A stretch of 58,663 bases of DNA, the filler included, from Dugesia japonica (Eukaryota), in assembly GCA_001938525.1 (NCBI GenBank). It is 5 parts of 5 records of this genome, joined end to end, with 100 filler letters (N's around TTAATTAATTAA, not from the genome) between each part and the next. Parts side by side here need not be neighbours in the genome. Positions count along the whole stretch, not along the records: positions 19,738 to 36,282 come from MQRL01583068.1; 4 more parts are not named here. One strand, 5' to 3'. Every line of letters begins with the position of its first letter. Positions within the stretch are counted from its first letter, which is position 1. Below are positions 8,505 to 36,282 of the stretch, piece after piece. The position numbers and the translations under genes are program-made. The notes under the pieces were generated by a model, which had not been told where the DNA came from, did no database searches, and worked only from the letters and a program-made list of their open reading frames with translations.

Positions 8505-9400
8505 AAGATTTACCTTTCCTATTATTTAAGATGTTTCATTGGATAATATCCATTTCTCAAAAGCAGCTTTTCTTATTGTTTCGCCGTCTTGTCTAAGCAA
8601 TGCTTTAATAACTAGATATTTACTGTACTGGTCTATTATTTCAAAAATATATTTTTTCCGTCTACTTGTTTCTCGCATTGGCCTACATATAAATGTGGAT
8701 ATACCTTCAAACAAATTTTTAGCTAATAAACTCCTTGTCTTTTCTTTAGTTGCTGATGTCACTACTTTGGTCTTCCTATAAATTTCACAATTAAAAACTA
8801 TATTATGTATTTGGTTCCACAAATTCTTTGCAATATATTTGTTTCTCATATATTCGTATACCTTTTCAACTATTACATGTATTTATGTATGACAGTTTAT
8901 GTATTTATTCTATTGTTTCATGTGGTTTGTCATCCGGAATTTTTAATTTTTTGATCAAACCTGTTTCCTCAGAAAGGTTTAAATGATCTTCTTGTTCATT
9001 TTTAATTATATTCAATATTCTCGTTTTATTCTTCCTTTTCTTGGCATTTTTATTTAATATTTGACACTATACCTCACATCTTGATCTAGATAAAATATCT
9101 GCATTAGCATGTTGAATTCTTTTTCTATATTCCAAAACCATGTCTAAGCTGCTCAAATAATTATTCCATGTCTGAAATTGTGACGTAATTGGTTTCTTTG
9201 TCGTCATCATGAAAGTTAAAGCTTTGTGATCTGTTCTAAGAGTGAATCTTCTATCGTACAAGTAATATGTAAAATGCATACAGAAATAATAAACAGCAAA
9301 TAATTCCTTTCATGTAATGAAGTATCCCTTTTCATGAATTGTCAATGAGTGTGATCCATAAGCAACAACTATTTCTCTTCTTTCTTTATCTCTCTGAAAA
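8505..9400 (-). mobile_element. Ty3/Gypsy pol remnant (RNase H and integrase), same family as 42447-45123
   Basis: FTLRTDHKAL, HANADILSR and KYIFEIIDQYSKY. The nucleotide sequence closely matches 42890-43200. Confidence 0.9.
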
Positions 9401-13159: not shown

Positions 13160-13945
13160 TTTATAAGACAGTTTAAAGAATTTCTGTTTTTATCTTGATG
13201 CCGAATACGGTGACGTAGTTTATCATAGTGAGGTTCAATGGTTAGGTAAAGCCAAGGTTTTNNNNNNNNNNNNNNNNNNNNNNNNNNNNNNNNNNNNNNN
13301 NNNNNNNNNNNNNNNNNNNNNNNNNNNNNNNNNNNNNNNNNNNNNNNNNNNNNNNNNNNNNNNNNNNNNTTAGTTGATATTATAAACCATATTTCATCTT
13401 TAAATATGAATATTCAAGGTAAAATTTAATTATCTCCCTGTTTATCACGAATATTAAATATTTTATATCAAAACTGTCATTTTTCTCAATGTTTAATAGT
13501 GGAAGCTAAATTTCCGCCCAAGAAATTAACAATTTGTAGAAAGAATTTGACGAGAGATTTGCAGAATTTCTCGCCAAGGAAAATGGAACTCGTATTTTTA
13601 CATCACCTTTCTCTGTAGAAATATAAAATGTATCCAAAGAATTGCAAATGGAAATTTTGGATTTACAATCTAATTCTTATTTTAAGGATATGTTTCGAGA
13701 AACTGCTTTGGTGGAGTTTTATCAGAAATATGTTATAAATGATAAGTTTCCTAATCTAAGCAATTTTGTTTCTGGAGTTCTTTAACTATTCGTAACAACA
13801 TATTTATGCGAGCAGTTTATTTTGATAAATTTAGCAAAAACAGAAGTACGTTAACCGATCCGCAGTTAAAAATTCTTTACGATTAGCTGCTTCGAACATT
13901 AGTCCCGATATTGATAGCATTATGAAAATGCATAAATCTCATTAA
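13160..13945 (+). mobile_element. hAT transposase remnant (GTF2IRD2/SPIN-like)
   Basis: RQFKEFL, DAEYGDVVYHSEVQWLG, ELQMEILDLQS, FPNL, TTYLCEQF and RLAASNISPDI. Confidence 0.85.
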
Positions 13946-15233
13946 ATTCCTAAAATATCAAATATATTTTTGATTTCATTAAATTAAAGGCTTCGATCAA
14001 AATATTTAAATATCAAAATTGAACTATTTTTGGATGTTCAGGTTTTCGATCAAAATAATAGAATCAAACAAAGTTTTATCTTGAACCCCATTTAATTATT
14101 TAAAAAATATTATTTGTTAAGTAGTTTGGTATTATACATTTATACATAGTTTTGTCATTTATTGTATACGATTTAGTAAATTAAGTTAAGCTTCATCTGT
14201 TTAATTGATTTTACAGATATATTGAAAAAGTTTCTTCTGAAATATATTTTCCTCATAGCTTATTACTTTTTATTAATTGTAATTTTTTTTCGTTCTTGCT
14301 ATAAACAAAAACAATGTTTTAATAAAATCATTTATATGGAATCTGGTTTTGTCTTATTATTAAATTGACATTAAAAAATGTTAACTACTTGTTTAATTAA
14401 TTATTTGATTTCATTGTATTTTTTCATTGAAACATTAAATATGCAAATTGCGTAACTTTGATGTGTTAATTTTATCCGTCTTATGTGATATTGGTATTCA
14501 ATTTTTGATTTTTATTTGATATTAAATAATATAAAAAAGTAATTAGAGATTTAATCGTTTAAAATATCTTAATAAATTTTTATATTTCAATACCGATCTC
14601 TGATTCTCTTTGAAATCTCGAGGACTGCTTCATAAATGACAGATTAAAATATTTAATTACTATTTTTAATAACCAGTTGAAATTAGTATATGGTTCCTTG
14701 CCAGACAGGTTATCTTTCAAACCAGAAAATCCTTCCAAGACATTACATCTTGATTTTTCAGCGAGTTACTATAAGAAAAAAACAAAAAGATAAGAAATTA
14801 AGAAGAATATACTCAATGAGAAGATCNNNNNNNNNNAAAAAACTCTAAGTTAGGTCTTCATTCATGCTTCACTGCTCATGACCTTTATTTTATCAAACTC
14901 ATTGTCAATAGAAGAGAGCAATCACATTGATTTAATTATGTTAAATTTGTTAAGAGAGAAATATATCTTGCATTTTAGATATTTATATTTCGATTCATAA
15001 CAATAACACAATTACAGCGATGGAGAAGCAACGAAAATATTTTTACTGTTATGGTTCGTCACAACATGAGGAGTTTATCTAGAGTTGAGGTACTGGAAAT
15101 GTTGATATTGATTTATATCTTCAAGATAAAATATAGAATTATTTTTTCATTAATTATTTAATATCGTTTCTTTTTAATAAATCATAACTATTTTCCATTA
15201 AATATAAAATGAGATTTAATTGTTTATTTTGAT

Positions 15234-15740: not shown

Positions 15741-16284
15741 AGTGAATACAACTGTTAAACCTGGTTCATCGCCAATATACTCAGATATGTCTTTATGTAA
15801 CCAAAAAAATAACGAATCTAATGATAACATTTTCTCAGATGATTTGTATTGTGATATAAATGAACAAATTAATTCTCAAAAGCAAAACGATATCGATTTG
15901 AATCATACAGAAATTCCAAAATCTACACAACCTGTAAACATATTTAATGTTACAATGATGAACGATGATGTATATTTTTGTCCAAACGAGCTTGTTGATC
16001 CTGAAGTTGTCAATATATCTGGAAATACTATATCTGATGATATTTATTTAATACCAAATGAAATAGAAAGAAGTGTACAAAATTCACCTAATGAAAATGT
16101 TAATAATGTTGATGATGTTTATTATAATCCGAATGATGAAATGGATTTTCCAGTGCTAAGTAAATTCAAAGAAGACTTGTTAATGAAATGGAATGAAATC
16201 GATGTTGAAAGAGCTTTTCGTGTTGCTCATAACGATGAAATTCTTGCAAGAGAGATTTTAATCGAATTTGTTGCCCCAAAATGA
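15741..16284 (+). CDS. cbl: Terminal exon of a Cbl-family E3 ligase (Tyr-motif tail and UBA domain)
   Basis: Acceptor TTTATGTAG ends at 15740. The C-terminus DVERAFRVAHNDEILAREILIEFV matches the Cbl UBA pattern, and DDxY motifs are repeated upstream. AATAAA at ~16580. Confidence 0.7.
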
Positions 16285-17254
16285 ACTTCTCGAACTTTCA
16301 GTTTATTGAAACGATTAAATCGTGATTTTAAATTGTATTATTTGTAAATGTATAAGTGTTTTCTCCTGCATGTTAGAAATTATAATTATTTTTATATGGA
16401 ATTTTAACGATTATTCAATTTTTTTGGTGCGTTATAATAATTCATATGGATTTTCTATTTTATTGTATTTGTTTTTGAATTTATTGAATATTAATTTAAT
16501 TGTCATTTTGATTTTTATCAAAATGTTTTGCGTCAGCATTTTTATTCTACGCCAAATTTTAAGCACAAATTTTGATTGAAATAAAACAATTAATCGTAAT
16601 TATTTTAATTTGATAAATGTTAAGATACATTTCATATTCTTAAATTTTTGTTTTAAATATGTGAATACTTGAAAGTGCATTTATTATAGTTAAGAATTGA
16701 ATAAAATTATTTTTGACACAATATGAAATAAAATTATTTAAATAAGTTTGATAATTTCTAAAACAAAGGATTTCAAATTTTTTCCTTTAAATCCTAACAT
16801 TAAGACCAATCAATTTTTGAAAATTTTGTTTAAGTCGCAAGTATTGTAGAAAATTGCCTGTTATTTTCTTATTATGCCTTTGCTAATAAGTAATCTGGCG
16901 TACTGATTTAAAAATTTCATCTCTGAATATGCTGTTGCAAGATCTTGGGGTTATTAATTTCGGAATTTGAATTGATCCTTGTTATATTGCTTATGATTTT
17001 AATATTCTAATAATTACAATTTTAATGATATCATTGTAAAGTAATGACCTCTTTTTTTAACAATGTCTCACCTATTTCTAATAAACATAAATGTGGTTGT
17101 TGGTTCGTACGATGTCGAATCCATAAATACAAGTTAAAATGCCAATATTTATTAAAATCCACGTTTCTTCTACAAAATGAATTTGATTAAAGTATATTTT
17201 TAATTTAAAATGTAATATAATTAAAAGTCATTACACAACCNNNNNNNNNNNCCG

Positions 17255-19240
17255 AGGTAGTTTGAAAGTCTTCGGAATGTTGGTTTGAGTCTGTTGACTG
17301 ATACCGTTTTTCTAATTATTTCAATGTAAGTTTCAAATCTGTACTCTTGTGGATGACAAGATATGGTACTTCGTATGGTGATTACAAGCTCGTTGTATTG
17401 GGCGATCGGAGCTATACTTGTTCACAATTTTGTAGAGCTAATGGAATGAAGAGGGTTCTTTTGGTTATATTGGGTGGCTTTGATCTCCCGAGTATTTGAA
17501 TTGAACATTTTCTTTCGTAATGACATTTTCCATGTCTGTGGTTGGAATGATGTCTCCTCGGAGGTGAGTTGATGAGCTGTAGACAAGTTGTTCTCATTAG
17601 ACTTGTTGACCTGTAATCGTTGCAATGGACCTTGTCCTTCATTTAAATGTGTTATGTGTTTGAAAAGCATTTTTCAGGATTCGATGCAGTCTCGATTTCA
17701 CCTTTACATTGAGGATGGTATGATGTTGTGTTGTGGTGATCGATTTTCTATCTTTTGCAAATTTATTTGAATTGATTTGATATAAAAAGTCTTCGTTGAT
17801 CAATAGTTGTGATCTACGGTGGACAAAATCTACTGCTTCACACTTTTTCGAACGCATCTACGATTGCTTTTGACCAAAATTTTTCACAATCTATCATCGT
17901 CAGAATGAGCCGCTTTCTTTAACATTGAAGAACAGTACCGACAATATCCATGCATAACTGTACTNATTTTGGAAGATATTTNAGTGGGGATTGCGTATGA
18001 ACTGTTCATTTTTGTGATAGACATCTATGGCATTGTCTCGTTCATTCTCGAACGTCCGATTTCATCTTTGGTCATATGTAGCGAGCTTGAATGAAATCTG
18101 TTGTTTTCTTGGCCCCTAGGTGCGCAATGTTATGCAATCTGTCAAACTCAGTCTTCTTGTATCGCGTTTGTAGTATTTGTCATGATTCTCTCGATCTTCT
18201 TTATTTTTAGTAATTGATTGAGTGAAGCGTCTGATTGTTGCTCTTTGATCAATTCATCCTTTGGTATTGAAAGACTTTTGGATTCAGAAAGTCTGAATAA
18301 CAAATCAGCTACGACGTTTTTTGATCCTTTCGTTTATTTGAGCTGGAATGAAACCTGGCTGATAAATTCAATATGATGCCATTGCATGTTTGTTGGGTTT
18401 TTTATCGATTGAATATATAGTAGTGATCTGTGAAAATTATGAATTCGTTGCCTTCTAAGTAGTGCTTTAAATTCTTGATGGATAGATAAATAGCTAAGAG
18501 TTCTCTATCAAATGTTGAATATATTTGTTCTGCTTTGTTTAATTTTCTGGAGAAAATGCGAAAGTAGTAAGCATGTCGTTAATTTTGTGATTTAGACTTG
18601 CTCCAACTACGATGTTTGATGCATCTGTTTATGGTATAAACTTTTTGTTANAATCAGGTGGAGTCATATTTGTGATTTCATGCTCGACTGTCCATTGTAG
18701 CTTTCTGTAAGTATTTTTCGACAATACTAACAGATTATGAAGAGGAGCTATTGTTTTAAAGAGATGCAGAGTCAGTCATCCATTCGTAGAATATGACTGC
18801 TCCTAAAACTCTTCTTAGTGACTAAACAGTGGTTGGTGAGAGACAGTTGGTTATCGGTTAAATGATAACCTAGCGATTGAATATAAATCGTAAGTATCAA
18901 TATACGATTTTTTATTGGTTTATATATTGAATCCACGAAAATCAACAGACGTCATTCTGAATTTGCTTTTGGTTTCATGATATTTAGATTTTCTCTCATT
19001 AGAACTTTTCAGTTGTTTTTAAATGAATTTCGTGGTCGCCAATTGATTTAGAGAACATGATAATATCATCAAAGCTTTCTGTGTGGTGAANNNNNNNNNN
19101 NNNNNNNNNNNNNNNNNTTTGTGAGGCATTTTGGAGTCCAAGTGGCATCCTTGTATATTTAAAAAGACCAAAAGGTATAATGATTGCTGTCTTTTGAATA
19201 TCTTCTGGATTGATTGGTATTTGATGGTAATATTTCCTAC
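17255..19240 (-). mobile_element. Ty3/Gypsy pol remnant (RT, RNase H, integrase), a second family
   Basis: YYHQIPINPEDIQKTAIIIPFGLFKYTRMP, TDASNIVVGA, YSTFDRELLAIYLSIK, NVVADL, TTQHHT (integrase) and SPYEVPY (GPY-like). Confidence 0.9.
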
Positions 19241-19637
19241 ACTTGCGTTTGGCTTAAATAATTAGTAACTACTTATAATATATATTTATTTTATTTGATA
19301 AACAACATATAAATACTTTAGGTGTACTCATATATCTAATGGATAATCTTGCGTAAACGGAGTTTTGGTTTCTGATTTTTTCAGCAGATAATCATCATGA
19401 TCTTTCAACCGCTTTTAGGATGCAGATCATTCAATTAACATGATCTCTTTCTCTCATTATATTGCATCAGAAACTCAATACCTTAAGATAATAGCTGAAC
19501 CAAGAGCATTACAAATATGTTCCAAATGTTTTAATTTTTTTGTTGCTAATTTCAACTCACGTTTGAGCTACAAACGTTATTTAGTTGGGTGATTGCGATA
19601 GCTCTTTTATGGGCTAACTCAAATTCAATATCAATTT

Positions 19638-19745: not shown

Positions 19746-20447
19746 CTAGAAATATCTAAGACGACTTTTTAATAATTCTTCATTCTTCAAACTTTCTTTA
19801 AACATGATATCATTGAATGCATCAATATTAGCGAATTTGTTGTTACCGATTAAATGTTGAAATCTTACAATTTCAGATAAATCTGATAAAATAATTTCTG
19901 GTTTTTTCGGTAGATCAGATTCGTCGAAAAATTTCCTAAACTTCACCAGACATCTGTCCTCATGATATATAATCGACCTTAATGAATACCGATTACCACA
20001 AAGATAACAAACAATACTTTGACGAATCATATTGTTATTACTGATATTTATATGGGTATCAATTGGAAAATCTGTTTTATCACCAGCTCCTTTGAATTTA
20101 TTAATAATAACACACTCTTTCTCATGATCTGAAAATCTTTTACAAAAGAACCATTTATTACATGCTGAACAATTGAAATTGGTAAATGTTTCTTGGTTGT
20201 CGATTTGAGTAGTTGATTCGTCGTCAAATTTGAAAAAAAAACAACAGCCTTGATCGATACCGTTTGGAATTTTACTAACGTTTTCTTTAAATTGAACTTC
20301 AAGACTTTTACTTTTTTTATGTAGAATTTTGTTTCGAATTATCGAATTCTTTTTCATTAATGGATAATAAATTAATCTATTTTCATTTGTTTTCAATTCA
20401 GAATTATTGGAACTAGTATTCGGTTTGTAATCACGTAATGCCCGCAT
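19746..20447 (-). CDS. ZNF474-like C2HC zinc-finger protein
   Basis: CSACNKWF..RFSDHEKEC and IVCYLCGNRYSLRSIIYHEDRCLVKF..LPKKP..IDAFN match the ZNF474 zf-C2HC_2 repeat pattern. First ATG at 20447. Confidence 0.7.
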   Translation of the reverse strand: MRALRDYKPNTSSNNSELKTNENRLIYYPLMKKNSIIRNKILHKKSKSLEVQFKENVSKIPNGIDQGCCFFFKFDDESTTQIDNQETFTNFNCSACNKWFFCKRFSDHEKECVIINKFKGAGDKTDFPIDTHINISNNNMIRQSIVCYLCGNRYSLRSIIYHEDRCLVKFRKFFDESDLPKKPEIILSDLSEIVRFQHLIGNNKFANIDAFNDIMFKESLKNEELLKSRLRYF

Positions 20448-20691
20448 TGTTTTGTTTTGTAATTTGAAAAAAAATCTTTCAGTCAATAATAAAATTGACT
20501 TATTATATTTTGTAACTAATATATTTTGTTATTTAAATATAAAGATTTTATTATACTCTTAAAAGTTTAACAATTTTTTAAATCTTTTTTATAATAAAAA
20601 TGTGTGTATCTATGTGTGTGCTTGGTGTGCATTATTTTTTCTACCCTTTTTCTTTAATATAATGACTTATTAAACTTTGGCCCGTATTTTT

Positions 20692-20983
20692 CTGGTCAGA
20701 ATTTTAATACAGTTTTGGTCAGAATTTTAATTAAATTGGTCAGAATTTATATTAAATGGTCAGAATGTATCGGTCAGAATGTATCGGTCAGAATTACAGA
20801 TAGCAGAATACATAATAAATAGTCAAAATTTATATAAAATGGTCCAAATTTAAAATAAATTGGTCATAATATATTCTGACCCTATCATAATTTTATTCTG
20901 ACCGATCTTAATTTTTATTCTGACCATTTATATTTTTATTCTGACCATCAATTTTTAAAATTCTGACCATTTAATTTGTCGCC
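20692..20983. repeat. Foldback element with internally repeated arms
   Basis: Tandem GGTCAGAAT units followed by tandem ATTCTGACC units, which are their reverse complement. Confidence 0.8.
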
Positions 20984-21191
20984 TTAAACCTTTAGTAAAT
21001 TTTTATGTATATCACTCTATTTTACCGTATTTTCTGGTTGATACCGCGTGCGTTATTTATACAAAAAATATAAAAATCGAGAAAATGTGACTGTGCATTA
21101 TACAGAGGAACAAAATTTTATTTAAAAGCGAAGTGTATATTTTATCAATTCGATAAAAGTAGATAGATAGTAGCGCACTGTATCCCCCCCT

Positions 21192-21655
21192 TCAAGGTCA
21201 AATTTTTTCAAGGTCACTGATACAGTATACTTGATTCTGATTGGTCCGTGATCTAGTATACTCAATTATAATTGGTGGAAAATATGAAGGTCAACTTTTC
21301 AAGGTCAAACTGATACAGTATACTCTATTTTGATTGGTCGAAATATTTTCAAGGTCAAAGTGATACAGTATCTTGTGTTTTGATTGGTCAAAGTGTATCA
21401 AGGTCAAAGTGATATAGTTTCCTGCGATCTGATTGGTCGAAGTAGTTCAAGGTCAAAGTGATAAAGTATCTTGCGATCTAATTGGTCAAAGCATTTCAAG
21501 GTCAAAGTGATATAGTATCTTGCGATCTGATTGGTCGAAATGTTTCAAGGTCAAAGTGATACAGTATCCTGTGTTCTGATTTGCCCAAACGTTTCAAAGT
21601 CAAAGTTATATAGTATCGTGCGATCTGATTAGTCGAAATGTTTTAAGGTCATCTG
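21192..21655 (+). promoter_or_regulatory. 49-bp subterminal tandem array containing TCAAGGTCA and TGATTGG (CCAAT) motifs
   Basis: Exact TCAAGGTCA at 21192, 21208, 21299, 21349, 21398, 21447, 21496 and 21545, plus variants. Period is 49-50 bp. The repeat is directly seen; a regulatory role is inferred. Confidence 0.65.
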
Positions 21656-21849
21656 ATAAACTTCAACTAAAAATTCCCCGGGCATACTAAATATTTAAAT
21701 TTCTCTCGCAAAATTAATATTAATATATTTATTTATTTTTTTATTTTGTTTTAATGTATCAAAATTTTTTTTGAAATATATTTGTTTCACTACTTATGAA
21801 AATAAAAAACAATTTTAAAAAAAATATTTATTTGATAACATAATTAACA

Positions 21850-22175
21850 GTCAATATAATGAAATATCTGTTGATTTTTCTAAAACTTCCGAACCTTTAA
21901 TTATCATTATTCCTTCTTCATTCATTGGCGCATCTTCAACAGTTTGTATATCGGCTATTATTTCAACATCCGCTTGAATACTTTCTAAGTTATTCATTAT
22001 TTAAATAATAAATTAATAAAAATATCTTATCTATAACTTTAACAAATGTTTCCTTCATCTCTTCTGTCAATGAAGACAATTCTTCATTCAATTCTGCAAC
22101 ATTTTGTTGATTTTCATGAGAATAATTTATATCAATATATTCAACCATATCATCTATAACTTTATCTATATTCAT
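21850..22175 (-). pseudogene. Small acidic accessory ORF of the element, possibly spliced
   Basis: ORF MNIDKVIDDMVEYID.. followed by a second acidic segment after an AT-rich stretch ending in AG. Confidence 0.35.
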
Positions 22176-22626
22176 TGTTGATTAAAGGAAAAATGTTGAT
22201 TTTGTTTATATTGGCCACTGTTGCAACTTCATCTTCTTTGTTTAACTTGCCTTCTTATTGCAAAAATACATTCCTCGTGCTCATTGTATACTTGCATTTG
22301 AGTTGCATTGTCATTGTTTAACTTGCATTCAAGTTGCACAAGTATGACTCGTAGTTTTTTTCTTCTTGAATTGCATCAGTATTGCATGTTCTTTGTTTAA
22401 ATTTCTTTCTCGAACTTTTAATTTTTAGCCCTAATGAGGACTTATATACTCATAATCAATATTTGTGCTCCTAAAGACGACCGTTACTCGTTCACATATA
22501 TACAATTTTCTTCTTTTTTCTGAATATAAAAATTTTAAATATTATCTAAAATCAAATAATTTCATACTTTGAGATAGATTGGACTGAGAATGATTGAGTT
22601 GAATTGATCTTGATTGAGGAAAAGTA

Positions 22627-25600
22627 TTACAATGAATAATGCCCGTATGGTAAGCTTAAATCTTTCTCTGTCCATACTCGCTTATCATCCTTATTAGACA
22701 GTGCCATATTTTTATTCTTAATACTGTAGAGCTGATGATTTTTCGATGTTATTCGAAATTGCTCTACTGAGACCGTCTCATTATAATTATAACAGTCAAG
22801 GTATGACTGATAACAAATGTCAGTACCTTTTAATGTTATGCCCTTAGCTTTCATTGATTCTTTCTCATTAAGTAGGCTATAACACTTCGGTCTCAAAAAT
22901 ATCCATTCTTGATATTTCTCCTCTTTGCTCTCATCCTTGAACTTGCCAATTACTGAATTTAAACTGTTGCTGTAAAAGGAATGGCTTGTGTTGTAATTGG
23001 ACGTATCTAATAGCTGATCCTTCTTCATTGATCCGGTCAGTTTTTCCAAACTTATGTCTACTACTTCTAAGAAAAAACTATCGGTATCACCGGCTATTAT
23101 ATTTNNNNNNNNNNNNNNNNNNNNNNNNNNNNNNNNNNNNNNNNNNNNNNNNNNNNNNNNNNNNNNNNNNNNNNNNNNNNNNNNNNNNNNNNNNNNNNNN
23201 NNNNNNNNNNNNNNNNNNNNNNNNNNNNNNNNNNNNNNNNNNNNNNNNNNNNNNNNNNNNNNNNNNNNNNNNNNNNNNNNNNNNNNNNNNNNNNATCAAT
23301 TTTTGAGCTGAATTACACAATCTTAAATTCATTCTCTTCTTTAAATTCTCAACTGTTTTACCATACAGCCTATTGTTTAAATATAATTTATTTATAAGAA
23401 TTATTTATAATAATTCTTCTCCAACTCTGATTTACACTCTGATCTTAATTTAGTGTTGACATCTATATATTGTTTGAAAATAGATGCCTGGCTGAACTTA
23501 AAACCTCTATGTACCTTTGTCATTTGTACACCCAATTGCAAATAAATTTGCAGCAAACTCCAGTGTATGACATAATTTTCTTTCGGGTAATGAGTCAGCA
23601 TTAATTTTATCACCTTACTACCTGGAGGACTTTGATGTTCTGCTGCAACAGGTAAATTATTCAGTTTGTCTTGAATTTTTGCTGGTATAACCATATCTAC
23701 TTCTAATGTGTATCCATATGGTAANNNNNNNNNNNNNNNNNNNNNNNNNNNNNNNNNNNNNNNNNNNNNNNNNNNNNNNNNNNNNNNNNNNNNNNNNNNN
23801 NNNNNNNNNNNNNNNNNNNNNNNNNNNNNNNTCGATGTATAATAAATCCGTGTTTTCATTACTAACAACATGGTGTTTATTTACAAATGTTAGCCCACCT
23901 CGTATCCCCTTCAAAAAATGTATACATATCATTATCAGTCAACAATTCAATTGGTTCATTTAATGACATCAATACAGATGCCAAACTCATACCCGGGATG
24001 CCAAAGAATGTTAATGGCTCCAAATTATTGTGTGCCAATGATTTTGTCCTGAACTGTTGAAAGAAATCGGCTAACAAAAACACATCTAATTTCAAATATA
24101 GTAGCAAATAATCCAATAGATTGTTGCATTCTGTTATAGTCCACATTTCCAATGCTTTTTGATAATCCTGCTCATTAACTTCCTCCCATCTTGGTGGCAT
24201 TGTTGTTGTTTCAATCAGAACTCGCAAACTGGTTGCATAATTATAAGGAAATATCCCCTTTGACATTGTTATTCTGCTATCTCTAAATTAATTTGTTGTC
24301 AAAGGTGTCTCTTTTAAGGATTTGACTGCTGCATCCAATGAAGAGTTAATAAATTGATAAGAGTCAATAAATCTGATTGTAATTTCTTTCAGATGTCCAA
24401 TGAGGCATAGGAATTTTTCTGATGTTGTTGGCATGCAGGATATGGTCCAATGAGGAAATTTATTTAATCCATACTTTAATATATGGTGAAGGTCATATCC
24501 TCTCAAATTATGGAAGACTACTGGTAATTGATAGATGATTCGTCTGCTTAAATTGCATTTATTACAGGCGGCTCCTATATACTTACCTGTAAAATGGTCA
24601 TGATCCCGGACTGGATTACTTAAAAGGTTTTTTACACAAATGACATATTGTACTATGTTTAAATTCCATTTCTTGATCCGGGTTCATAATTCGTTTCTTT
24701 TTTCCTTCTTTAATATAATATGGATATACAATATTATTACCAATTTCCTCCACATCCTTTAGAAATTCATATAAGCATTCATTTCCAATAAACTGGCTGT
24801 ATTTGACTTCATTGGTAAAATTATTTACCAACAGCAGTCCAGCTGAAACAGCTAAATGTTTTTGGAAATGCTTTTCATCGCTGGGTAATACCGATTCGAA
24901 ATCAGCATATATAACAAAGGGTGGAGTTATAGTTTTGGAGTAATCTTGAAACTCCAGATTCTTTTCTGTTGGCATCTTGTATAATGTTGTGCCAGTCTGA
25001 ATTTTCTCACAAATTGGCTCATGAGTCTTGTAAGCCGTATTATCCTTGAATCCGTTGAGATAATTCTCGCATCAGATTGCTTGAATTCGAACACCATCCT
25101 TTTTAATATCTCTGTTCATCAATCTATTCAAATTCATTACTGCAGTGTAATGAAATTTGTTGGCATCTTCCAATGACAATAAATTGATTTTTACTCCATC
25201 ACATTTAGACCGATGTATAATGTCTAAATTCGAATGCTTCATTATAACATCATCATCGTCCTCAACTGATTGAGGATTCCATGAAAAACATTAATTGATA
25301 AGCCAAGGTCTTGATTTTCAAATTTTGGTATATTTGTGAGCTTCATTGGCATGTCCCCTTCATCGAATACAAGATCAGACATATTTTGATGCTCGATTCT
25401 GATTTTTTCCAACTTTATCCTTTTTGAGAATTGCTAGGATACTATATATAAAACACATATTATCATTATTCTGTATTTAAGAACGGCTTTTTTATTTTTC
25501 AAGTTTTTTGGTGTTGGAATGTAGCCATGTCCAGATAATCTACTGATATCTGATACCTTTGTGATTTTAAAATTTATTTCCAATATGCGGCTCAGTATCC

Positions 25601-26316
25601 AACTAGATCCGAGCTCGCTTCGTATAGCAATCTTCCATTTAACTGTTTTATTCCATCTTCGAAAAAAGAATTACTCAATGGACTAGCTCGATTTGATAAT
25701 CTACAAGTTTTTGTTACGTCGTCTTTTTCGAATTCAACATTTATTCCGAATTAGATCTTGACATTTTTTAATTCTTCAATAATTTTGAATAACTGCTCAA
25801 TCATGGAGTTTGGTAAAACGATTTCTCTCGTATTCCATCTTGAAACATTCATTTTTAATATCTGGTGACATTTATATAAGTCACTTCCTATTATCACATC
25901 TTCATTGAGGGAGCCACCAGCTTGTGCTTCTTCTTCATCTATAAAACTTTGCATGGCAATATCTTCTTCATCTATTTCATCTATGATTTGAAAATCGGAC
26001 CAATCATCTTCAATTATCTGAGATTCCACCTTTATTTCTCCATCTGAGATAAAATCTTCTTTTCTCTTCTTCGATGGTGGACCATTTATCTCTTTTTCTT
26101 ATATCATCTTCAATAATTGTTTTTTATTTGTTGTAAACTGCCCTGCATGCAACCTATAAAAGTCTAAATATTCACCTATTCCTATAGACATGCATGATGG
26201 ACATATGTAATACTTTTCCTCATAANNNGATTGTGCATAGTATCTCTCCATAGTACTATGACAGTCGCCTTTATGAGTACAATTTGCACAATAATGTTTG
26301 TACATTGTACAACAAT
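22627..26316 (-). pseudogene. polB: Protein-primed DNA polymerase B (EndoVII-domain type), frameshifted
   Basis: Ordered motifs: GSSW, YIPTP..KKAV, CFIYSILA, YADFES, CHLC..DHDHFTGKYIGAACNKCNL, FHNLRGYD, FIDSYQF, KGIFPY, GIRGG, GKFKDE, LRPKCYS, KAKGI, DDKR and PYGHY. Confidence 0.95.
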
Positions 26317-26859
26317 CTGGAAAAAATAAGTTTAAAACATTTTATAAAATTATTAAAATTTATTAAATTATTAAAACATAAAATAAGTTATAAAATGAAA
26401 AACTAACTTTTATCATAAATAGGAGCCGCAACAGGAGAAGAAACAACAGAAGCATCATAAATTTACTTTAATTAAACTCTTTCTTTTGATACATCTTCCA
26501 CCTTGCTTTGAATTATTATAATTCTAAAATAAAAATTAATAATCATTAAATACTAAAAGTAAATTTACATTATCAATCATTAAACTTGACGAATTCATAT
26601 TTCGTTTATCGTTTATATTGTTCATAACCTGAAAGTGTAAAATAAATAAAAATAATAATGAAAATAGTTTACCTTTTCTTCGTTCAACAATTTTCTCAAT
26701 ATGCTTTGATTGTTCATAATCTAAAAATATATATAAAATAGATATAAAAAATAACAAACTTACGTATCAAATTTGTCGCTTTTAAAAATAGTTTTTTGAA
26801 AATTGTGAAAATTTTTCAAAATTAACTGTTTTTATAATGTCAAAATAATTATTCTTTCA

Positions 26860-27040
26860 CCATTGTATGCATGTATTTTAATTTTTCTATCTCCTTTGTA
26901 TGAGTGTATCATATATTTTCTATTCCTTCGATGTGTGTATAATATATTTTCTATTCCTTCGATGTGTGTATAATATATTTTCTATCCCCATTAAACTATT
27001 TGTGTATGTATCATAACTTTTTCTATCCCCTTTGCAAGTG
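26860..27040. repeat. ~30-bp tandem repeats upstream of the pPolB leader exons
   Basis: TGTGTATAATATATTTTCTATTCCTTCGA-like units repeated about 5 times. Confidence 0.7.
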
Positions 27041-27352
27041 TTTATTCAAAATTTTAAAATACCACAACGTAGTATATCAAGTTGTAACAAGAAATCATTT
27101 TTTTATGATAAAATAATTTTAAAGTACTGCAACGTAGTATAATTTTGCATTTACAAATTTATTAGTCATGAAAATAACAAAGACATGTTTTTATTATAAC
27201 AAAGGTCAATTAACTGCTTTATATTTTTATGATTTTAAAAAATTTAACTATTTTATAATTTAAATAAAAATATATCAAATATTTTCATATAATACATTTA
27301 TTTACATACAACATATACATTGTTGATTATTTTTCACATAAAATGTTGATTT

Positions 27353-27736
27353 TCAGATACAATGTTGACTTTTAAGCCACAATAGACAATGTTGACTACA
27401 GGTTGTTGTAAAAGGATTTTGAAATCTAATTTTGTTATATTTAATTGGCTTTGATATTTTTGAGAGATGTGAGACCAATATATGTAGATAATAAAATCCA
27501 AGTGGATCAAAAACTGAAATAATTTCAGGCTTATGATAAACTGCTATCCAATTTTCTCCACAAAGATTTGATGTTTCAGTATTGTAGATTAAGGCTTTAT
27601 TAACTGGAAAGTATGGTAGTTTGTCTAATGTATATACTCCCAACCACGACGATCCCAACAATTTTGATCCAATTTGATTAATCTGAAAAGAACTAATAAA
27701 GTAAAATATTAAAATTAAATGAAAAACTTATTTCAT
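27353..27736 (-). pseudogene. Adenain-like cysteine protease with a 39-nt intron (27693-27731)
   Basis: Spliced product MNSFQINQIGSKLLGSSWLGVY..NT..GENWIAVY..FDPLG..QNPFTTTCSQHC. The catalytic His position reads Asn and the donor reads ATAAGT. Confidence 0.85.
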
Positions 27737-27768
27737 ACTTTTGATTATTTGATTTTATTAGATATTGT

Positions 27769-28065
27769 TTACCGTAGTACTGTTCTATTAGCATTTATTT
27801 GGGTTTCGCTTTCAAATACTCCATTTATTATAACATACGCTTCCGTCTCCAAAGCTTTAGCAAACTTTATATCCAATCTTAAATTTCCTTGTTGAGGCAA
27901 TTGACTCTGATTAATATCGAAGTCTGGAGCAAGTACAAATGTAAAAAACGGATATTTGCTTTTTAATTTCTCAAGTTTTATTCCACAATTCATATTCTTA
28001 TCCAAATATCCCATATTGTACTGTATCACCATTCTGTATTCTACATTTCCAGTATATAATAAGTC
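27769..28065 (-). pseudogene. Major capsid protein (hexon-like), C-terminal fragment
   Basis: FFTFVLAPD, GNLRLDIKFAKAL and VFESETQINANRTV are typical of the F54H12.2-like MCP C-terminus. Confidence 0.85.
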
Positions 28066-28069
28066 GAAA

Positions 28070-28895
28070 ATGAAATACATGACTGCAAAAAAATATATTA
28101 AATGAAATAACTGTAACAATTAATAATAAGGAAAAAGCGATTAGTGCGATCAAAATACAAATATTGAAATATTTGAATAGAATCTCACAAGAATTTATTG
28201 TGATTTTCCATATATTGTCATATTTGAAGATGCAAATATCGCGCATTCATTTGGATTAGAATTTAAATCTAACAAATTAAAAAAAACTTTTGGAGCTATC
28301 TATACAAACTTTGCAAATGATGACACAATACAAAAAGTAAAAATTAAAGTAGATTATACAAAGGTGAATTATCATAATTTTCAGTTTAAAAAGGATACAT
28401 ACATATCAGAATTAGAATATTAAGTAAATATTTGTCAAAAAATTGTACTCAAATACTTAAGAAATGTCTTACAAATGTAGATATTTTGAATTCGAGCTAC
28501 AAGATGATGTCAAAAATGTTGAATTTTATTATGTCTAAAAAAGAACATTTGGATTAGACAAACAACAATATTCTCCTACAGTTATGAAGGGAGGCAAATT
28601 CAAAGCTATTGCTAAATAAAATGAATAAAATTACATCAGCAAATATTCATCTATAGTAATCTTGTTGAAACTATAATTGTAGGTGATGTTAGTGTACATT
28701 TGTTGAAAACAATATGGATAGAAAAGCATGAAACTGATGAAGTAGTACAAATGATAGTTAAGAATCCAATGTATTTAACTATGGTAACATCATGTATAAA
28801 CAATATAAAAATTAATATACGCGATGATAACGAAAAATTAATGAAGGTTATAAAATTCAAAAACTCATTTAACTTTACATTTTAAAAAACTAAGT
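28070..28895 (+). pseudogene. Minor capsid protein (penton)
   Basis: YSNLVETIIVGDVSVHLLKTI..NPMYLTM..INNIKINIRDD and a terminal LTLHFKK. The 5' boundary is approximate. Confidence 0.8.
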
Positions 28896-28896
28896 A

Positions 28897-29320
28897 ATGA
28901 ATCCTGATATTTTTTCAATGTATAGTACTAGTCAAACAGGTAGAAAACTACCTTACTTTCTTGGAAAACAGTGTTGATCTGGTTGGTTGTGAAAAATAGG
29001 GAAATTTGTATTACCTATTCTTAGACGTATTGGTTCATTTGGTATGAAAACAGCTCAGGATGTACTAACTAAATTGGAGAAATACTACCAACATTAAAAT
29101 CTAATGCATTCGCTGAACTTGGAAATTTTATGTCATCATTACATAGAGGAGTAACCAGTATGATTCCAAAAATAGTAAAAAAGTAAAAATAGCATAGTAA
29201 ATAACGAATATGCTATCAAATCAAGTCAAAACACCACAAATTCATAGAAAGCGTACAAAATCTCGCGCATCACGTATAAACAAACTAATGAGAGAGCATA
29301 GAACAATATTTGAAAAATGA
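28897..29320 (+). pseudogene. pX/core-like virion protein with putative adenain cleavage motifs
   Basis: MNPDIFSMYSTSQTG.KLPYFLGKQC*SGWL..IGKFVLPILRRIG.., with a basic C-terminus. Its TGA overlaps the MCP ATG (ATGA at 29317). Confidence 0.65.
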
Positions 29321-30322
29321 TTTGCAGTAAAACTGAATTATGTATTTTTGATCGACCATCTCCTCAAGTTGTAATTAAAAGTGGTAGGTTTGAAGATGTC
29401 TTTCCTATAAATTCAATTTCTGAATCACAAAGCGACATAGAGTTTTTTATAAATGGATCTCAAACAGAATATTTGGATTTGAATGATACTTTATTGTATA
29501 TTAAAGTAAAGGTGATTGATAAGACAATTTGGCCGACACTCATTATGTTGTTCCAAGTAACTATATGCTGCATACGCTTTTTAAGGATGTAATTCTTTCG
29601 TTTATTAATTTCAAAATTGAAGGTGGGAATGGATCTTATCTTCTCAAAGCATTAATTGAAACTATAATAAATTATATAGGTGATAGTAAAAATATCTGTC
29701 TTACATCAATGAAATATGGAAGCAGATATAAAAGGTCTACTAAAACATCAAAAAGATTTTCCCTATGTGGTGCATTGCAACTCGATTTCATGGATCAACC
29801 AAAATACCTTATTCCTGGTGTTAATGTTGATATTAGGTTGAAACAATTGTCTTCAAAGATAAGTTTAAAGTCTGCAGCTAATGAACCAAGATATGTATTA
29901 CTAGATACAAAATTAATGGTTAGACGTGTATGTGTTGAACTCTCAGTACTAGCTGCTTATCAAATGGGACTATGAGACTGTTTCCTTGACGAAAAACACT
30001 AATTATTGAGAAATATACACTGAAGATTTTACAAACGATAATTTTACCACTACATATATGTAATCTATAGTAAGAAATATGGGATATTTGGATAAGAATG
30101 TGAATTGTGGAGTAACACTTCAAGATTTTAAGGATAATTATACCTTCTTTTCATTTGTTCTTGCTCCAGATTTTGAAATAAATCAGTCAATTAACTCAAC
30201 AAAAAAATTTGAGATTGAATATCAAATTTGCCAAAGCTTTAACAACATCAAAATATGTTATAATTTATAGACTATTTGAAAATGAAATTCAGGTTAAAGC
30301 CAACGAAACAGCATTAGTGTAA
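29317..30322 (+). pseudogene. Major capsid protein (double jelly roll, F54H12.2-like), internally deleted
   Basis: CSKTELCIFDRPSPQ..IEFFING..YLDLNDTLLY, LHTLFKDV, DFMDQPKYLIPGVNVDIRL and FVLAPD. Confidence 0.9.
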
Positions 30323-30350
30323 ACAATATGTTGGATAATTGGTACATGTT

Positions 30351-30635
30351 ATGAAGTAAGTGTTATTAAAGTAATGATTTTTATTTTCATAGTACTATTC
30401 AGATTGATAGGATTGCACCAAAGTGGCTTGGATCAGCATGGTTAGGTGTTTATGCGTTAGATAAACTTCCAAATTATATTACAGTAAACAATGCCTTAAT
30501 TGTCAATAATCATACATCAAATCTAGGTGGATAACATTAAATAGCTGTTAACAATAAATCAGATATCAAAATCCATTTACAACTATATGTGGTCAACACT
30601 GTTAGTTATGGACGAAAAAACAACATTGTACTTGA
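30351..30635 (+). pseudogene. Adenain-like protease with a 37-nt GT-AG intron (30356-30392)
   Basis: ATG AA|GTAAGT..TTTTCATAG|T ACT ATT CAG gives MNTIQIDRI..WLGVYALDKLP..GG*H*IAV..QNPFTTICGQHC. Confidence 0.85.
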
Positions 30636-31397
30636 CAGATTTATATGTACTTGTTGTATAAAATAAATGCTTTTTATTGAAATTAAATCTTTCTTATTTA
30701 TTAAAATTATGAATAAAAATAATAAAATAACAACATTTATTTACAAACTATTTGTTAGTAATATGCTAATAATTCATGTTTTTTTATTATTTTGACACGT
30801 TTTATTATCAAAAAAATAAAATTAATTTAAAATACCACAACGTAATATATCTGTACTTTGAAAAATTAAATTAAAATACCTCAACGTAATATGTCTGCAA
30901 TATTTAAATATATTTTGACATACATATTCGAATTTGATTGGTTAGATTTGAAAACCTTGGTAAAAGTTATTATTCTTCATTATAATTTCAAATTTTCTTT
31001 ACAAAACCAGTGAACAAATAAAAGAACAGTAGAAAATAACAACATTTATTTATAAAATATTTGTAATTATTATACCATTAATGCATGTTTTTTATTATTA
31101 TTTTTTTAAGTTAAATTTTTTTAATATTTTACTTTAAAAACTACTATTATGCTATTTTATTATGAAGAAGAAATGTTCGGTTTGTTTTATGAAAAGTTCT
31201 ATGCTTTTATTATTTTGCTGAGAAAAGTTCCTAGCTAATATGTTTTTTATAGAAAAAGTTCAATGCGTTTTATATTTTATAAAGAAAAATGTTATTAAAA
31301 GTTTTATTAAAATTATTATGTTATTGTTAAAATTATTATTTTATCATTATGTTATTAATTTTTAATTAAAACTATTAAAATCGCATCATTATTTTAG

Positions 31398-33621
31398 GAA
31401 AGTATCAATTATACAAAAAACATTGCGCTAGTGCGAGTCACAACGGTGACTGTCATAGTATCATGGAAAGATACTATAGCCAACGGTTTTATGAAAGAAA
31501 CTATTTTATATAGCATAATAGTAAGGTATTAAGTTTAGGGGACTACTTAGATTTTTATAGGATACATAAAAACCACTTGTCATGTTTTAGTACTAGTAAA
31601 AAATATATATTAAAATCAATATTAGATAGAAAGTTGGATAGTATGTTTTATGATGCACCAGTAAATAAGACAATTAAGTTTGAAGAAACAACAATTAAGG
31701 ATGAGCCTATTGAAATAATCGTAATTGAAGATGACGTTGAGTAAATCATCCATTTGAACCTGGAAAAAGGAGAAACATCAAATATTGTACAAGAAGAAGA
31801 AGCAATAAATATTTAATTTTACAGCAAAATAAAAAAACAATTAAATTCTTTCACAGCTATCAGATCAAAAATTCCTCATTGGACACTGCTGCTAAATACT
31901 TAAAAGCAACACCTTTGACTACAAAAGAATTTAAGAGTCAGATTAGTACAAAATCAATAGGGATATTTCCTTACAATTTTGTAACGAGCGCACAGGTTCT
32001 AGAAGATACAAAACAAATGCCGCCAAAATAGGAGGAAATTAATAGGAAAAAATATGAGAAAAAATAATCGATGTGGGAAATATTTAGTTACACAACATCT
32101 TTGAATTATATGATGTTATATTTAAAGTTAGATGTATATTTGTTAGCAAATTTTCTCCAGCAATTCCGTCCAAAGTCTTTATGGCACAACAATTTTGAAC
32201 CGTTGAATTCTTTCGGTATACCAGAAATATCATGGGTATCTGCGTTGATATCATTATAAAAACATATTGAATTGCTGCAAGATAACGATATTTATACATT
32301 TTTTGAAGGAGATATAAAAGGAGAATTAACTTTTGTAAACAAGCATCATATTACCACTAGTGAAAATGTTGATTGGTTGTACATAGATATTAATAATCTA
32401 TATGGTTGGACACTGAGTCAAAAGTTGTCCTATACAAATTTTGAGTGAGTCTATGATGGATTGAAAAGAGTTTTGGAAGTGTGTAAAAATGCAGACCTAG
32501 ACTCATTACCATATGGATACACACTCGAGGTGGACATGGTAATTCCAGCAGAAATACATGATTATTTGAATAATTTACCAGTTGCTACAGAACATAGAAG
32601 CACTCCAAGTTCAAAAGTAAAGAAATTAATGTTAACCCACTACTTCAAGATCAATTACGTAGTGCACTAGAAATTGCTGCAAATGTATTTAAGTTTAGAA
32701 GTTCAAGTAACAGAGGTTTATAGAGGTGTTAAATTCCGCCAAGCTTCAATATTTGAGAATTATATCAACACCAACACAATTTTCAGATCAAATTGTGTTA
32801 CAGAATTAGATAAAAACTATTATAAACTGTTAAACAATAATTTATATGAAAGGTCAGTGAAGAATCTTAAGAACAGGAAAAATCTGCGCTTAAGTAATTC
32901 AGCAAAGAAGTTGATTACATTCGCATCAAAAGCCAGATTTAAAAAAACCACAAAAATTGATGATGATTTGATAGCTGTTCTTCTCAAAAAGGATATCGTT
33001 TGTTTAGATCGTCCGAGCTACATAGGACAAACAGTACTTGGCCTCTTAAAATTGAGAATGTACAAACTTCAGTATATTGAGTTGGACAAGTACAGGAAGG
33101 AATATAATTGCAAAATTAATATTGTAGCCGGCAAGACAGATAGTTTTTTTCTAGAAATAAAAAATATACGTTTAGAAACAATAACAGCGAGTATAGTGAG
33201 AGATCAGTTACTTGATACTTTGAATTATGATACAGATCATGCTCTTTATAATAGCATCTCGAATTTGGAAACATGAAAATTCAAAGATGAGAATAAAGGG
33301 AAGAACTATCAAAAATGGGTATTTCTGAGGCCGAAATGTTATAGCCTACTCAGTGATAAGAACAGTATAAGAGCAAATGGCATAACATTGAAGAATACAG
33401 AAATTTGTCATCAGTCTTACCTTGACTGTTATAATGAGAACAAATCGGTCTCGGGGAAACAATTTAGGATAACCACCAAAAATCATCAATTGTATAGCAT
33501 TAAGTCAAAACAAATAGCACTGACAAACTCAGATAATAAGCGTGTATGGGTTAATAAAAACAACAGTGTACCATATGGTCACTATACCATAAAATTGTTT
33601 TTTTCCATCAATTCGATCTAG
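31398..33621 (+). pseudogene. polB: pPolB copy B: N-terminal Cys/His and acidic part joined by deletion to the polymerase half
   Basis: GDCHSIMERYY, then GIFPY, YLKLDVYLLA, DINNLYG, YYKLLNN, KTDSFF, KFKDE, LRPKCYS, DNKR and PYGHY. Confidence 0.92.
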
Positions 33622-34326
33622 CCTCATCAAGAACAAAACCGCAAACAAAGGTATTTATTTTGGTTTTTTAAAAATATTAGTTTAATTATTTTTTATTTAG
33701 ATTATGACAAGAAAAGCACAAAAACAACTGTGAACGTATAAATGGTCATCTTTAGGATAAAAAATTGTACATTGAATTGTGAATAATGTTATTATTATTT
33801 CTTATTATTTATTAGGTTTTTTAATGAACATGATGTCAGCATGAAAAAACAAGACGCGAGCATGCGTTGTACATGACATCTGCTTTTTACAAATAATAGA
33901 ATTTAACAATAAATTTAATTTTTAATTCAATTTATATTTTTATTTCTTTCTTACAAATTGAATATTAAAACAAATATAACATTTGGAATTTGATTATAAA
34001 ATTTCCATAATTCGTTATTACAAACTTTGAAGTAATTATTTTCAATTAGCTTTGAAACTTTTCAAGAAAAAGAAATTTCAATTAAACTAAAAAATACTTT
34101 TATAAAATTTGTTTAACAAAATTTAAAATTATTTAAATTTCTATTAATAAAATAATTCGTTAAATAGTTATGATGATCTATAATATTTCTTAAATTTAAT
34201 AAATGAATTCTACTAGAAATTATTCATTTTTTAAAAAAAATATTAATTTAAATTATTATANNNNNNNNNNNNNNNNNNNNNNNNNNNNNNNNNNNNNNNN
34301 NNNNNNNNNNNNNNNNNNNNNNNNNN

Positions 34327-36070
34327 ATGGTTTTACGAGAAACAGTATTTTTATGCCATAACTTTATGTCATTAGAATAAAGTTATTACAAAAAAATTTA
34401 ATAGGACCCACAGTTACCATCTGACAACTGTTGCTATGAATAAGAAAAAAGTATTAAAATTCATTCTAGATAGAGAATTATATGTACGAAATAAGATAAT
34501 TAAGTTGGAAGAACCGGAAGGTATTACTATCAAGGATGAACTGATAGAAGTTATTCTACTTGAAGATGATGATGAAGAAGAAGAATAAATCAAGACGAAA
34601 CTATAAGAATAAACTATCAATCTTGCACCAGAAGGAGAAGCAACCAATAATGAACAGAATTTTACAACAGAAGATTAAAGCAGTTTCGAAATCATTTATG
34701 AATTAGATGAAGAAAAGATTATATAATTCAGTAATTCGTTGATGCAGAAGAAGATATTCAATTTGGCTGTGCATTAAATCTTGTTATTGCCGATAAAAAT
34801 GTAAAAGGATTTATATCGTTATTACCTAATTATAAAAATAAATTTATCAAGTTGGAACAAAATCAAATAATACTAAGAGAAAGCTTGGTTTTCTAAAAGT
34901 TTAAGATAATAAAAGAGTTGAAAAAAGTGAAAATTCAATTTGGAATAACTGTCGAGTTCATAAGGGACGAGGAGATAAAAACTAGCAGAATATCAAAAAG
35001 AGCTATTTCATTAAATAACAGTTCTTTCAAAGACGGAGTAAAGCAATTGAATAAAAAATTGTTAAAAAGACTGAGCTCGGTTTCAGCTAGATACTAAGCA
35101 GAATTTTGAAAGTAAATTTCAAAATCACCAAAGTGAAATTTATTTGCAGACTGTCAAAGCAAAGTTATATATCGACACAAAACAATCTCTCAAAGAAAAA
35201 AGCGATTGTCAATATTAGGAACCATGAAAATAAATGCTTTATTTAGAGCATTCTAGCTATTATAAAAAAAGATCAAGTTAATAAGAAATCCAGAAATAAA
35301 ACATCCGTATATGAAAAATATATGTCTGAGTTAGAATTGGAAAAATCAAACATTCCAATAAAGCTAGATATTATTCTCAAATTTGAAAAAAAAATCCAGG
35401 ATTTTTTTTTCAAATTTGCGAATAATATCTAGCTTTATTGGAATTTTTGATTTTTCAAATTCTAACTCAATGCCTTTTCATGGAATTCAAATGACATGAA
35501 AAATGGCGATGAGGAAGTTTTCAAACATTTTAATTTAGATATAATCAAAAGGTCTAATGTAGTTGATGGTAAAAAAATATATCTGTTGTTGCTAAAAGAT
35601 TGCAATAAATACCATTACACAGGCGTAATGAACTTTGATAGGTTGGAATTGCCAACAAAGGAGCTAACATGAGAATTCAATCAATATGTTGTTAATATTG
35701 TTTAAATGGATCCAGAAAGGAAATAGCTTTAGAGNAGCATCAGATAATTTGCTAGAAAATTCAAACCGAAACAACTTTATATACCACGCTGACCAAAAGC
35801 AATTTAGAGTTAAAGCATTTCTCTAAAGCTCTAACACCACAAATCCTCATATATGCTTATTTTGAATCAGTTTTGCCGTCGAATGAACATATGCCAGTTT
35901 CAGAAGGAATACTGTTAGTAAATAATTTTTCTAACAAAAGAACATATAAAGACCTCATTGAAAATGACTGCAAATATGATTTTCTAAACAAAATTAATGA
36001 AATCAACCACAATATAGTGTCTTCATGTTACACACTACATGGAAATAACATAATTGCAATTATTAGTTAA
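34327..36070 (+). pseudogene. polB: pPolB copy C, N-terminal half only
   Basis: Collinear with 24700-26230 of copy A: FYEKQYFLC, acidic tract, KKAIVNIRNHENKCFI, YHYTGVMNFDR and YAYFESVLPS. Confidence 0.85.
35328..35468. repeat. Fold-back inverted duplication (~70-bp arms) inside pPolB
   Basis: GAGTTAGAATT..AAAATCC A GGATTTT..AATTCTAACTC. Confidence 0.9.
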
Positions 36071-36282
36071 ATTCAAAGTTTCACAAGTCTCCATAAATTG
36101 CTTATTGAATATTACAAGTCTTTTATTATAATGAAAAATGATAAAACACAATTCACAATATTCAAAAAAGTAATCTGAGAAATCTTAATAAAATATTTTT
36201 CAAAAATATTGATTTTTTAAATTCCAAAATACTGTTGGGGTCCCACCTGAGTTGAGCGACAAAAAAGGTGGCTGGGGAAAAA

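Follow-up and report, generated by a model that had tools for sequence, protein, structure and literature searches.

A tandem array of candidate nuclear-receptor and NF-Y sites at the likely end of a Polinton-like remnant in Dugesia japonica

Animal Polintons are known almost only from sequence, and the locus described here bears on how and in which cells they are activated. The locus studied lies in a 58,663-nucleotide stretch of Dugesia japonica DNA (GCA_001938525.1, filler between its five parts included), which we refer to as the window. In it, the remains of a Polinton-like element lie beside a repeated array of short words that resemble the binding sites of host transcription factors, and a preliminary description proposed that this array is an origin or enhancer placed at a viral terminus. 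We therefore asked what the element is, where it ends, how the array is built, and which function, if any, best accounts for it.

The element and its likely end

We found the following features at the terminus and inward of the array:

21158..21173, plus strand: likely element terminus, with the AG-initial short repeat AGTAGATAGATAGTAG, unique in the window and coinciding with a depth step; located to a bin only
21855..22260, minus strand: decayed acidic open frames between polymerase and array, multi-copy like the rest of the element
22627..25891, minus strand: remnant of a protein-primed family B polymerase (by PF03175, homologues, and tblastn with intact relatives), pointing to the array
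26845..27030, plus strand: internal 31-bp tandem repeat upstream of the polymerase unit
27353..27727, minus strand: likely maturation protease, 48% identical to the capsid-adjacent ORF of the related locus L086 (E 2e-29)
27769..28044, minus strand: C-terminal part of the major capsid protein, 60% identical to L086 ORF 5008-6219 (E 3e-30)

The polymerase matches PF03175 in three pieces, one of which scores above the curated cut-off, and has 165 homologues at E<=0.001; this copy is broken by stops, frameshifts and two assembly gaps. The best metagenome matches to its C-terminal piece are 48-60% identical, and the array lies ~970 bp beyond its stop (22627). The acidic frames, which are possibly a small spliced gene, gave one weak Pfam match below the cut-off and no tblastx match in 37 related loci. 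While the capsid piece has no direct Pfam match, the Atlas clusters nearest to the L086 ORF that it resembles are double-jelly-roll-like (score 0.97). The frame beside it has no Pfam, NCBIfam or PDB match, and we take it to be the likely protease from its position and from motifs known in such proteins. An rve integrase and a packaging ATPase, both present in L086 (L082 has matching ORFs), are absent from the window by tblastn; this copy stops within the capsid gene, where it abuts an oppositely oriented Polinton remnant. Altogether, the element is a truncated, decayed Polinton-like remnant that carries the array at its likely end.

The surroundings of this remnant form a nest of several decayed Polinton remnants (21158-36100 and 83-1977). 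Two of them share a co-oriented capsid-protease-polymerase order and stand head to head at ~28,100; in the related loci L078, L080, L082, L086 and L089, the polymerase and capsid blocks are convergent.

The preliminary description had placed a terminus at 21158, where AGTAGATAG has its single occurrence in the window. To this region (20300-23100), we aligned three contig sets (X1, X3 and X8, the last from organism B) and one RNA run. Summed contig depth, which is not equal to copy number, was in X1 (which may be the window's own source) ~25 over the unique flank, 2,310 in the bin 21052-21145 and 117,186 in the bin 21146-21239. The step between these two bins was 51x in X1, 46x in X3 and 335x in X8, and it locates the end only to a 94-bp bin. 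Over the array, depth was 3e4-1e5, the same order as at the polymerase end (6e4-2e5). The table of common contig ends was empty; one X3 contig, among the 24 listed of 16,155, begins to match at 21167, following 253 letters of unrelated sequence, which is how a separate insertion would look.

In vertebrate Mavericks, the ends read (AGT)2 or (AG)3, TSDs are 6 bp long and the terminal inverted repeats (TIRs) measure 46-1,447 bp (PMC8097293). The AGTAGA end seen here is a 5/6 match to (AGT)2 and falls in the same bin as the depth step. Like the TIRs of Polintons and Mavericks (PMC8097293; for nematodes, bioRxiv 2023.08.22.554363), it has an AG-initial repeat beside a protein-primed polymerase and capsid, and a length within the published range; unlike them, it reads AGTAGA rather than (AGT)2 or (AG)3, and is known here from one end only. 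Neither a repeat search nor self-BLAST found a partner TIR in the window, and the element's other end lies outside it. Because the depth step recurs in three runs, the repeat is AG-initial, and Polinton genes lie inward of it, the proposed terminus is well supported, and we regard 21158 as very probably the end of the element throughout its family.

Upstream of this end lies a palindromic multi-copy repeat (20693-20977), MITE-like, made of ~21-bp GGTCAGAAT units in inverted halves, with the word CCGTATTTT on either side of it at 20682 and 21025. We considered this repeat as a part of the element and ruled it out, since its depth is roughly tenfold lower and a low-depth gap lies between the two.

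Several further features of the window were noticed. Decayed remnants that by eye resemble LTR-retrotransposon pol lie on the minus strand at 17200-19260, 8585-9396 and 42481-44900, with two copies 75% alike. An ORF at 15787-16284 has no Pfam match and ends in a UBA-like segment that, we presume, recalls the C-terminus of Cbl. A 258-aa ORF at 6044-6820 has a hydrophobic N-terminus and likewise no Pfam match. The first exon of a host SLC17 transporter lies at 38459-38857; its identity is 69-75% with S. mediterranea Slc17a-10 against 53-59% with three other matches, which makes a dugesiid planarian the likely host. An Atlas search with this gene did not place the host.

Layout and conservation of the array

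The consensus site of NR5A is YCAAGGYCR, and that of NF-Y is RRCCAATSR. All eight matches to the former in the window (8/8), and five of the eleven to the latter, fall inside the array, which is laid out as follows:

21192-21200 and 21208-21216, plus strand: doublet of the exact nonamer TCAAGGTCA, preceded by a run of seven C; numbered from the putative end, the two copies are at nt 35 and 51
21208..21296, plus strand: outer irregular units, a nonamer with a TGATTGGTC box at 21238-21246 and a variant nonamer at 21285
21269-21277, plus strand, inside the preceding feature: variant box of a partial unit without a nonamer
21297..21651, plus strand: 49-bp tandem array of 7.2 copies, with exact nonamers starting at 21299, 21349, 21398, 21447, 21496 and 21545 and variants at 21594 and 21643
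21331, 21381, 21430 and 21528, minus strand: full NF-Y-type boxes of the 49-bp array, with variants at 21479, 21577 and 21626

Eight exact nonamers and three variants had been reported, and a whole-window count bears this out. The eight are all on the plus strand, with none outside the array anywhere in the window; the three variants (21285, 21594 and 21643) each have one mismatch, and exact and variant sites together span 21192-21651. The identities given to the two motifs were also right by consensus match: the nonamer is of the NR5A type, and the full box, TGATTGGTC, fits the NF-Y consensus on the minus strand, so that five full NF-Y-type boxes lie opposite to the nonamer strand. In shuffled sequence, 0.31 exact nonamers are expected per window. 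The excess of eight over this expectation reflects the tandem amplification of one unit and, because the copies derive from that one unit, is no independent evidence of function. For a single shuffled unit, the chance of carrying both consensus 9-mers is 1.25e-5 (400,000 shuffles), before allowing for the motif pairs that could have been noticed.

The spacing proved less regular than had been described. An exact GATTGG does follow the nonamer at 31-33 nt in 5/8 of the exact sites, but this falls to 5/11 when the variants are counted; the shorter ATTGG follows 6/11 sites, and a degenerate form two further ones. A 49-bp tandem repeat is present only over 21297-21651 (7.2 copies, 81% matches by TRF), while no regular period holds over the outer 140 bp, where nonamers form doublets with spacings of 16 and 14 bp and ATTGG boxes are spaced by 31 bp. 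The array can be called phased in the sense that it has a fixed period, but helical phasing is ruled out: 49 bp corresponds to 4.67 helical turns, and the 46-bp period of other copies (see below) to 4.38, which does not place the repeats on one face. The distance from nonamer to box, at 31-33 bp, is about three turns. Rfam gave no match at 20500-22700.

If the words matter, they should vary less than the bases between them, as the preliminary description held that they do. Over six ungapped units, the nonamer and GATTGG together scored 0.916 against 0.796 for the rest, with a column-permutation p of 0.065 (0.050 with the 9-bp box) that, like the one below, is generous, since the units share ancestry and their boundaries were set by the nonamer. 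Within these units, the nonamer itself scored 0.963, the next eight columns 0.958 and GATTGG 0.844. When the two outer units were included, giving eight aligned units (with two partial units omitted, one at 21247-21284 that has no nonamer and the last of the array), the motifs scored 0.919 against 0.703, ranking first of 49 circular shifts with a similarly generous p of 0.0012. The lower variability of the motifs thus holds over eight units but is marginal over six, where the eight columns after the nonamer are just as conserved.

Other copies of the family give a mixed picture. The RNA run contains joints that step back 38, 40 and 42 bases with 8, 6 and 4 letters between (62, 56 and 43 reads, respectively), and other copies therefore have a 46-bp period, in units of the type seen in the outer part of the array. 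The 46-bp and 49-bp unit types keep both motifs and differ in the length of the spacer. Five RNA loose-end rows, among the 24 listed of 2,126, fall at the array: two have the nonamer, two have GATTGG, and one has neither. In X1, both motifs are altered in one unit of each of two contig forms (depth 94 and 41), and one loose-end row has a broken box. Some other copies have lost both motifs.

Related elements and RNA over the array

Are similar arrays found at the ends of related elements? We compared the window with 37 related loci from metagenomes (129,215 bp), in none of which a terminus is recognisable and whose ends are mostly missing. A nonamer cluster was found in none of the 37, and an NF-Y cluster in two, L108 and L110, which are one family. 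These two loci start with 41-43-bp repeats that contain TGATTGG, followed ~35 bp on by TATATAAA and then by the ATG of the polymerase unit. L108 and L110 thus represent one independent case, within the clade, in which repeated CCAAT boxes stand where a promoter would be expected. Their promoter-like start shares the word TTTCTATYC with the internal 31-bp repeat of the window, where the word is reversed with respect to the polymerase. The related loci contain many kinds of tandem repeats.

Two further candidates were set aside. Near the start of L112 are one CAAGGTCA and two CCAATC, which do not make a cluster by the criteria used, and this locus was not counted. At the end of L082, one word of a 33-bp repeat recurs in the array variants; because this repeat lies inside an open frame, it was rejected as a parallel cis-element. 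The array patterns had no match in metagenome contigs or viral contigs. A looser pattern gave 77 single matches, none of which (0/77) had two nonamers within 200 bp and none of which lay with Polinton proteins; these matches are due to chance. Searching the viral contigs with polymerase and capsid sequences likewise gave no relatives.

Other observations on these loci concern their genes. By eye, the polymerase genes of L108 and L110 (1-1400 in each) appear to be interrupted by short AT-rich GT-AG introns, which to our knowledge are unusual in Polinton-type elements. An ORF resembling the TATA-binding protein is present on the minus strand of L086 (11330-11779; PF00352, E 5e-18) and of L082 (10318-10764). 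L086 also has an ORF that by eye resembles a ubiquitin-conjugating enzyme (13480-13977) and two long hairpins (13242-13405).

We also examined RNA over the region. From the quarter of the RNA run that was read, 1,864 reads aligned, only 23 of them at least 99% alike; the RNA therefore comes from other copies or from another strain, and the copy in the window is decayed and close to silent. First mates over the array were on the plus strand in 233 cases against 46, and showed the same polarity over the polymerase (108 against 17). Assuming a standard stranded library, the array RNA runs toward the terminus. Such outward RNA does not fit an inward promoter at the array, and we found there neither a pile-up of transcript starts nor, at the array end, an inward-pointing gene. 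Between the polymerase-side RNA and the array RNA, at 21804-21897, RNA depth drops to 1.5 where DNA contig depth is 26,629. This dip hints weakly at separate transcripts, the neighbouring stretch having been filtered.

Candidate binders and readings of the array

Planarian NF-YB is needed in male germline stem cells, and one paper reportedly deals with NF-Y and neoblasts. An NR5 receptor is a plausible binder of the nonamer in a planarian host. S. mediterranea has one NR5A (FTZ-F1) and one NR5B (HR39) and is without ERR and NR6A (PMC11637366; PMC8363021), which makes ERR, named earlier as an alternative binder, unlikely; we ruled it out as the likely binder in a dugesiid host. Mouse Nr5a2 binds TCAAGGTCA at ~6 nM (bioRxiv 2022.05.17.492379), and in schistosomes FTZ-F1, which has a role in the oesophageal gland, recognises elements of the SF-1 type (PMC8673669). 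Among S. mediterranea promoters, CCAAT enrichment is seen for intestine and epidermis, with no motif enrichment for the genes of neoblasts (PMC10558129); Polintons are piRNA targets in planarians, and their activity rises on differentiation (PMC8532177). The suggestion that the array ties activation to the germline finds no support in these papers. Mavericks have expanded in Dugesia (bioRxiv 10.64898/2025.12.11.693146).

With about an even chance of being right, by our estimate, our preferred reading is that the array serves as a subterminal enhancer or promoter for host NF-Y, acting at the CCAAT boxes, and for an NR5 receptor (FTZ-F1/HR39), acting at TCAAGGTCA. The array would be part of the terminal inverted repeat. 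Its repeated sites would open chromatin cooperatively, and the bound array would drive the element's genes in cells that express the receptor. The number of units would shift by slippage or unequal exchange, and redundancy would let dead units be tolerated. Of the two functions first proposed, origin or enhancer, we place the enhancer or promoter above the origin, given the related family in which a TATA box and an ATG directly follow repeated CCAAT boxes. Also in its favour are the high copy number that array and polymerase share, with a low-depth gap to the palindromic repeat upstream; the concentration of consensus matches in the array (8/8 for NR5 and 5/11 for NF-Y); the conservation over eight units and the retention of both motifs in the 46- and 49-bp types; the four of five loose-end rows, among those listed, with one intact motif; and the S. 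mediterranea receptors together with the binding by Nr5a2 and by schistosome FTZ-F1. Against it stand the marginal p-values over six units with the equally conserved columns after the nonamer, the X1 forms with altered motifs, the lack of a nonamer cluster in all 37 relatives (ends mostly missing), the outward RNA and the lack of an inward gene at the array end. Moreover, in adenovirus, COUP-TF and CDP bind the terminal repeats without a role in packaging (PMC5033970); therefore, host-factor sites near a viral end need not matter.

Mobile elements offer precedents for such sites. The same nonamer is found in mouse SINE B1/Alu, where Nr5a2/Esrrb motifs are NR5A-bound (bioRxiv 2022.05.17.492379); there, the motifs are dispersed, single and act on host genes, whereas in the window the sites are arrayed in tandem, together with NF-Y boxes, and lie at an end like that of a DNA virus. 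Repeats derived from the C. elegans Polinton_CE_TIR at eri-6/7 also have putative transcription-factor sites, but the available text describes no tandem array or named factor (PMC11414722). An internal array of host-factor sites is likewise not described in the available parts of the work on Polinton and Maverick TIRs (PMC8097293; bioRxiv 2023.08.22.554363), and PMC3014272, PMC6431247, PMC8502044 and bioRxiv 2023.08.22.554363 gave, in their available parts, general features only. The ends of Polintons, and the presence of host-factor sites at the termini of protein-primed viruses, are already known; among the matches listed by our literature searches, which covered neither Repbase nor most subscription journals, none reports a nuclear-receptor or NF-Y array at the end of a Polinton.

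Could the array instead be neutral, a subterminal minisatellite in which a unit that carried both words by chance was amplified by slippage, while the family spread for reasons unrelated to the words? The marginal conservation over six units, the equal conservation of the flanking columns, the contig forms with both motifs altered, the single origin of the eight copies and the many kinds of tandem repeats in related loci would all fit such a repeat. It accounts less well for the small joint chance of the two words in one unit, for the p of 0.0012 over eight units with motifs kept across unit lengths, and for the CCAAT repeat at a promoter-like position in L108 and L110. On balance, we consider a neutral repeat unlikely.

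By analogy with adenovirus, the array might alternatively be an auxiliary replication origin, in which host factors at nt 35-90 would help to load the complex of polymerase and terminal protein as NFI and Oct-1 do. The adenovirus ITR, too, has host-factor sites (NFI, NFIII/Oct-1) tens of bases inside a protein-primed linear end (PMC6410123), and NFI binds nt 23-36 of that origin; here, counting from the putative end, the outermost nonamers are at nt 35 and 51 and the first box at nt 81, all within ~90 bp, and the short terminal repeat fits slide-back priming (PMC8097293). However, adenovirus has single sites of proven function in ~90 bp, whereas the window has 11 repeated putative sites for other factors over ~460 bp, extending to nt 494 and thus far past an origin of that size. 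The number and length of units also differ between copies, and relatives with similar polymerases have no nonamer cluster (0/37, ends mostly missing). An origin therefore seems to us a somewhat poorer prospect than a neutral repeat.

The adenovirus packaging domain suggests another possibility, that the repeats are sites for packaging or integration proteins encoded by the element and that their resemblance to host-factor sites is incidental. Adenovirus A-repeats, which overlap the E1A enhancer, are redundant, bipartite and near one end, as the array units are, at a comparable distance (220-400 bp), and both COUP-TF, a nuclear receptor, and CDP, a CCAAT-related factor, bind them (PMC5033970). 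The conserved block, which reaches past the nonamer to 17 columns, and the ATPase and integrase encoded by relatives would also fit. Yet the functional binders of the A-repeats are viral (IVa2 and 22K) and their pairs are 21 bp apart (PMC5033970), whereas the window has a period of 46-49 bp, a non-integral number of turns (4.38 and 4.67), and its best-conserved words are exact host consensus sites. We rate this analogy lower again, as quite improbable.

Finally, it is very improbable that the array is an independent high-copy repeat (MITE or satellite) that merely adjoins the Polinton remnant: no listed contig crosses the AT-rich filtered stretch 21708-21824, where letters were skipped, depth dips at 21616-21803, and the window holds another copy of the polymerase beside which no array is present over the 660 bp that precede an assembly gap, but array depth is of polymerase order in three runs, organism B included, the terminal repeat is AG-initial, and one contig form in X1 and X3 joins the array to sequence of the 22350 region, on opposite strands.

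The enhancer or promoter reading can be carried one step further. NR5 receptor and NF-Y at the array might together form a cell-type switch that licenses both transcription and protein-primed replication, and gain of the array might have helped the family to expand in dugesiids; this extension is speculative, and we hold it to be improbable as it stands. A sequence-specific activator could explain the tissue pattern of Polintons in planarians, and many dispersed arrays could act on neighbouring host genes. With two candidate host factors named for the terminus of a transcribed, high-copy family, the activation of a Polinton becomes testable in planarians, where knockdown is routine.
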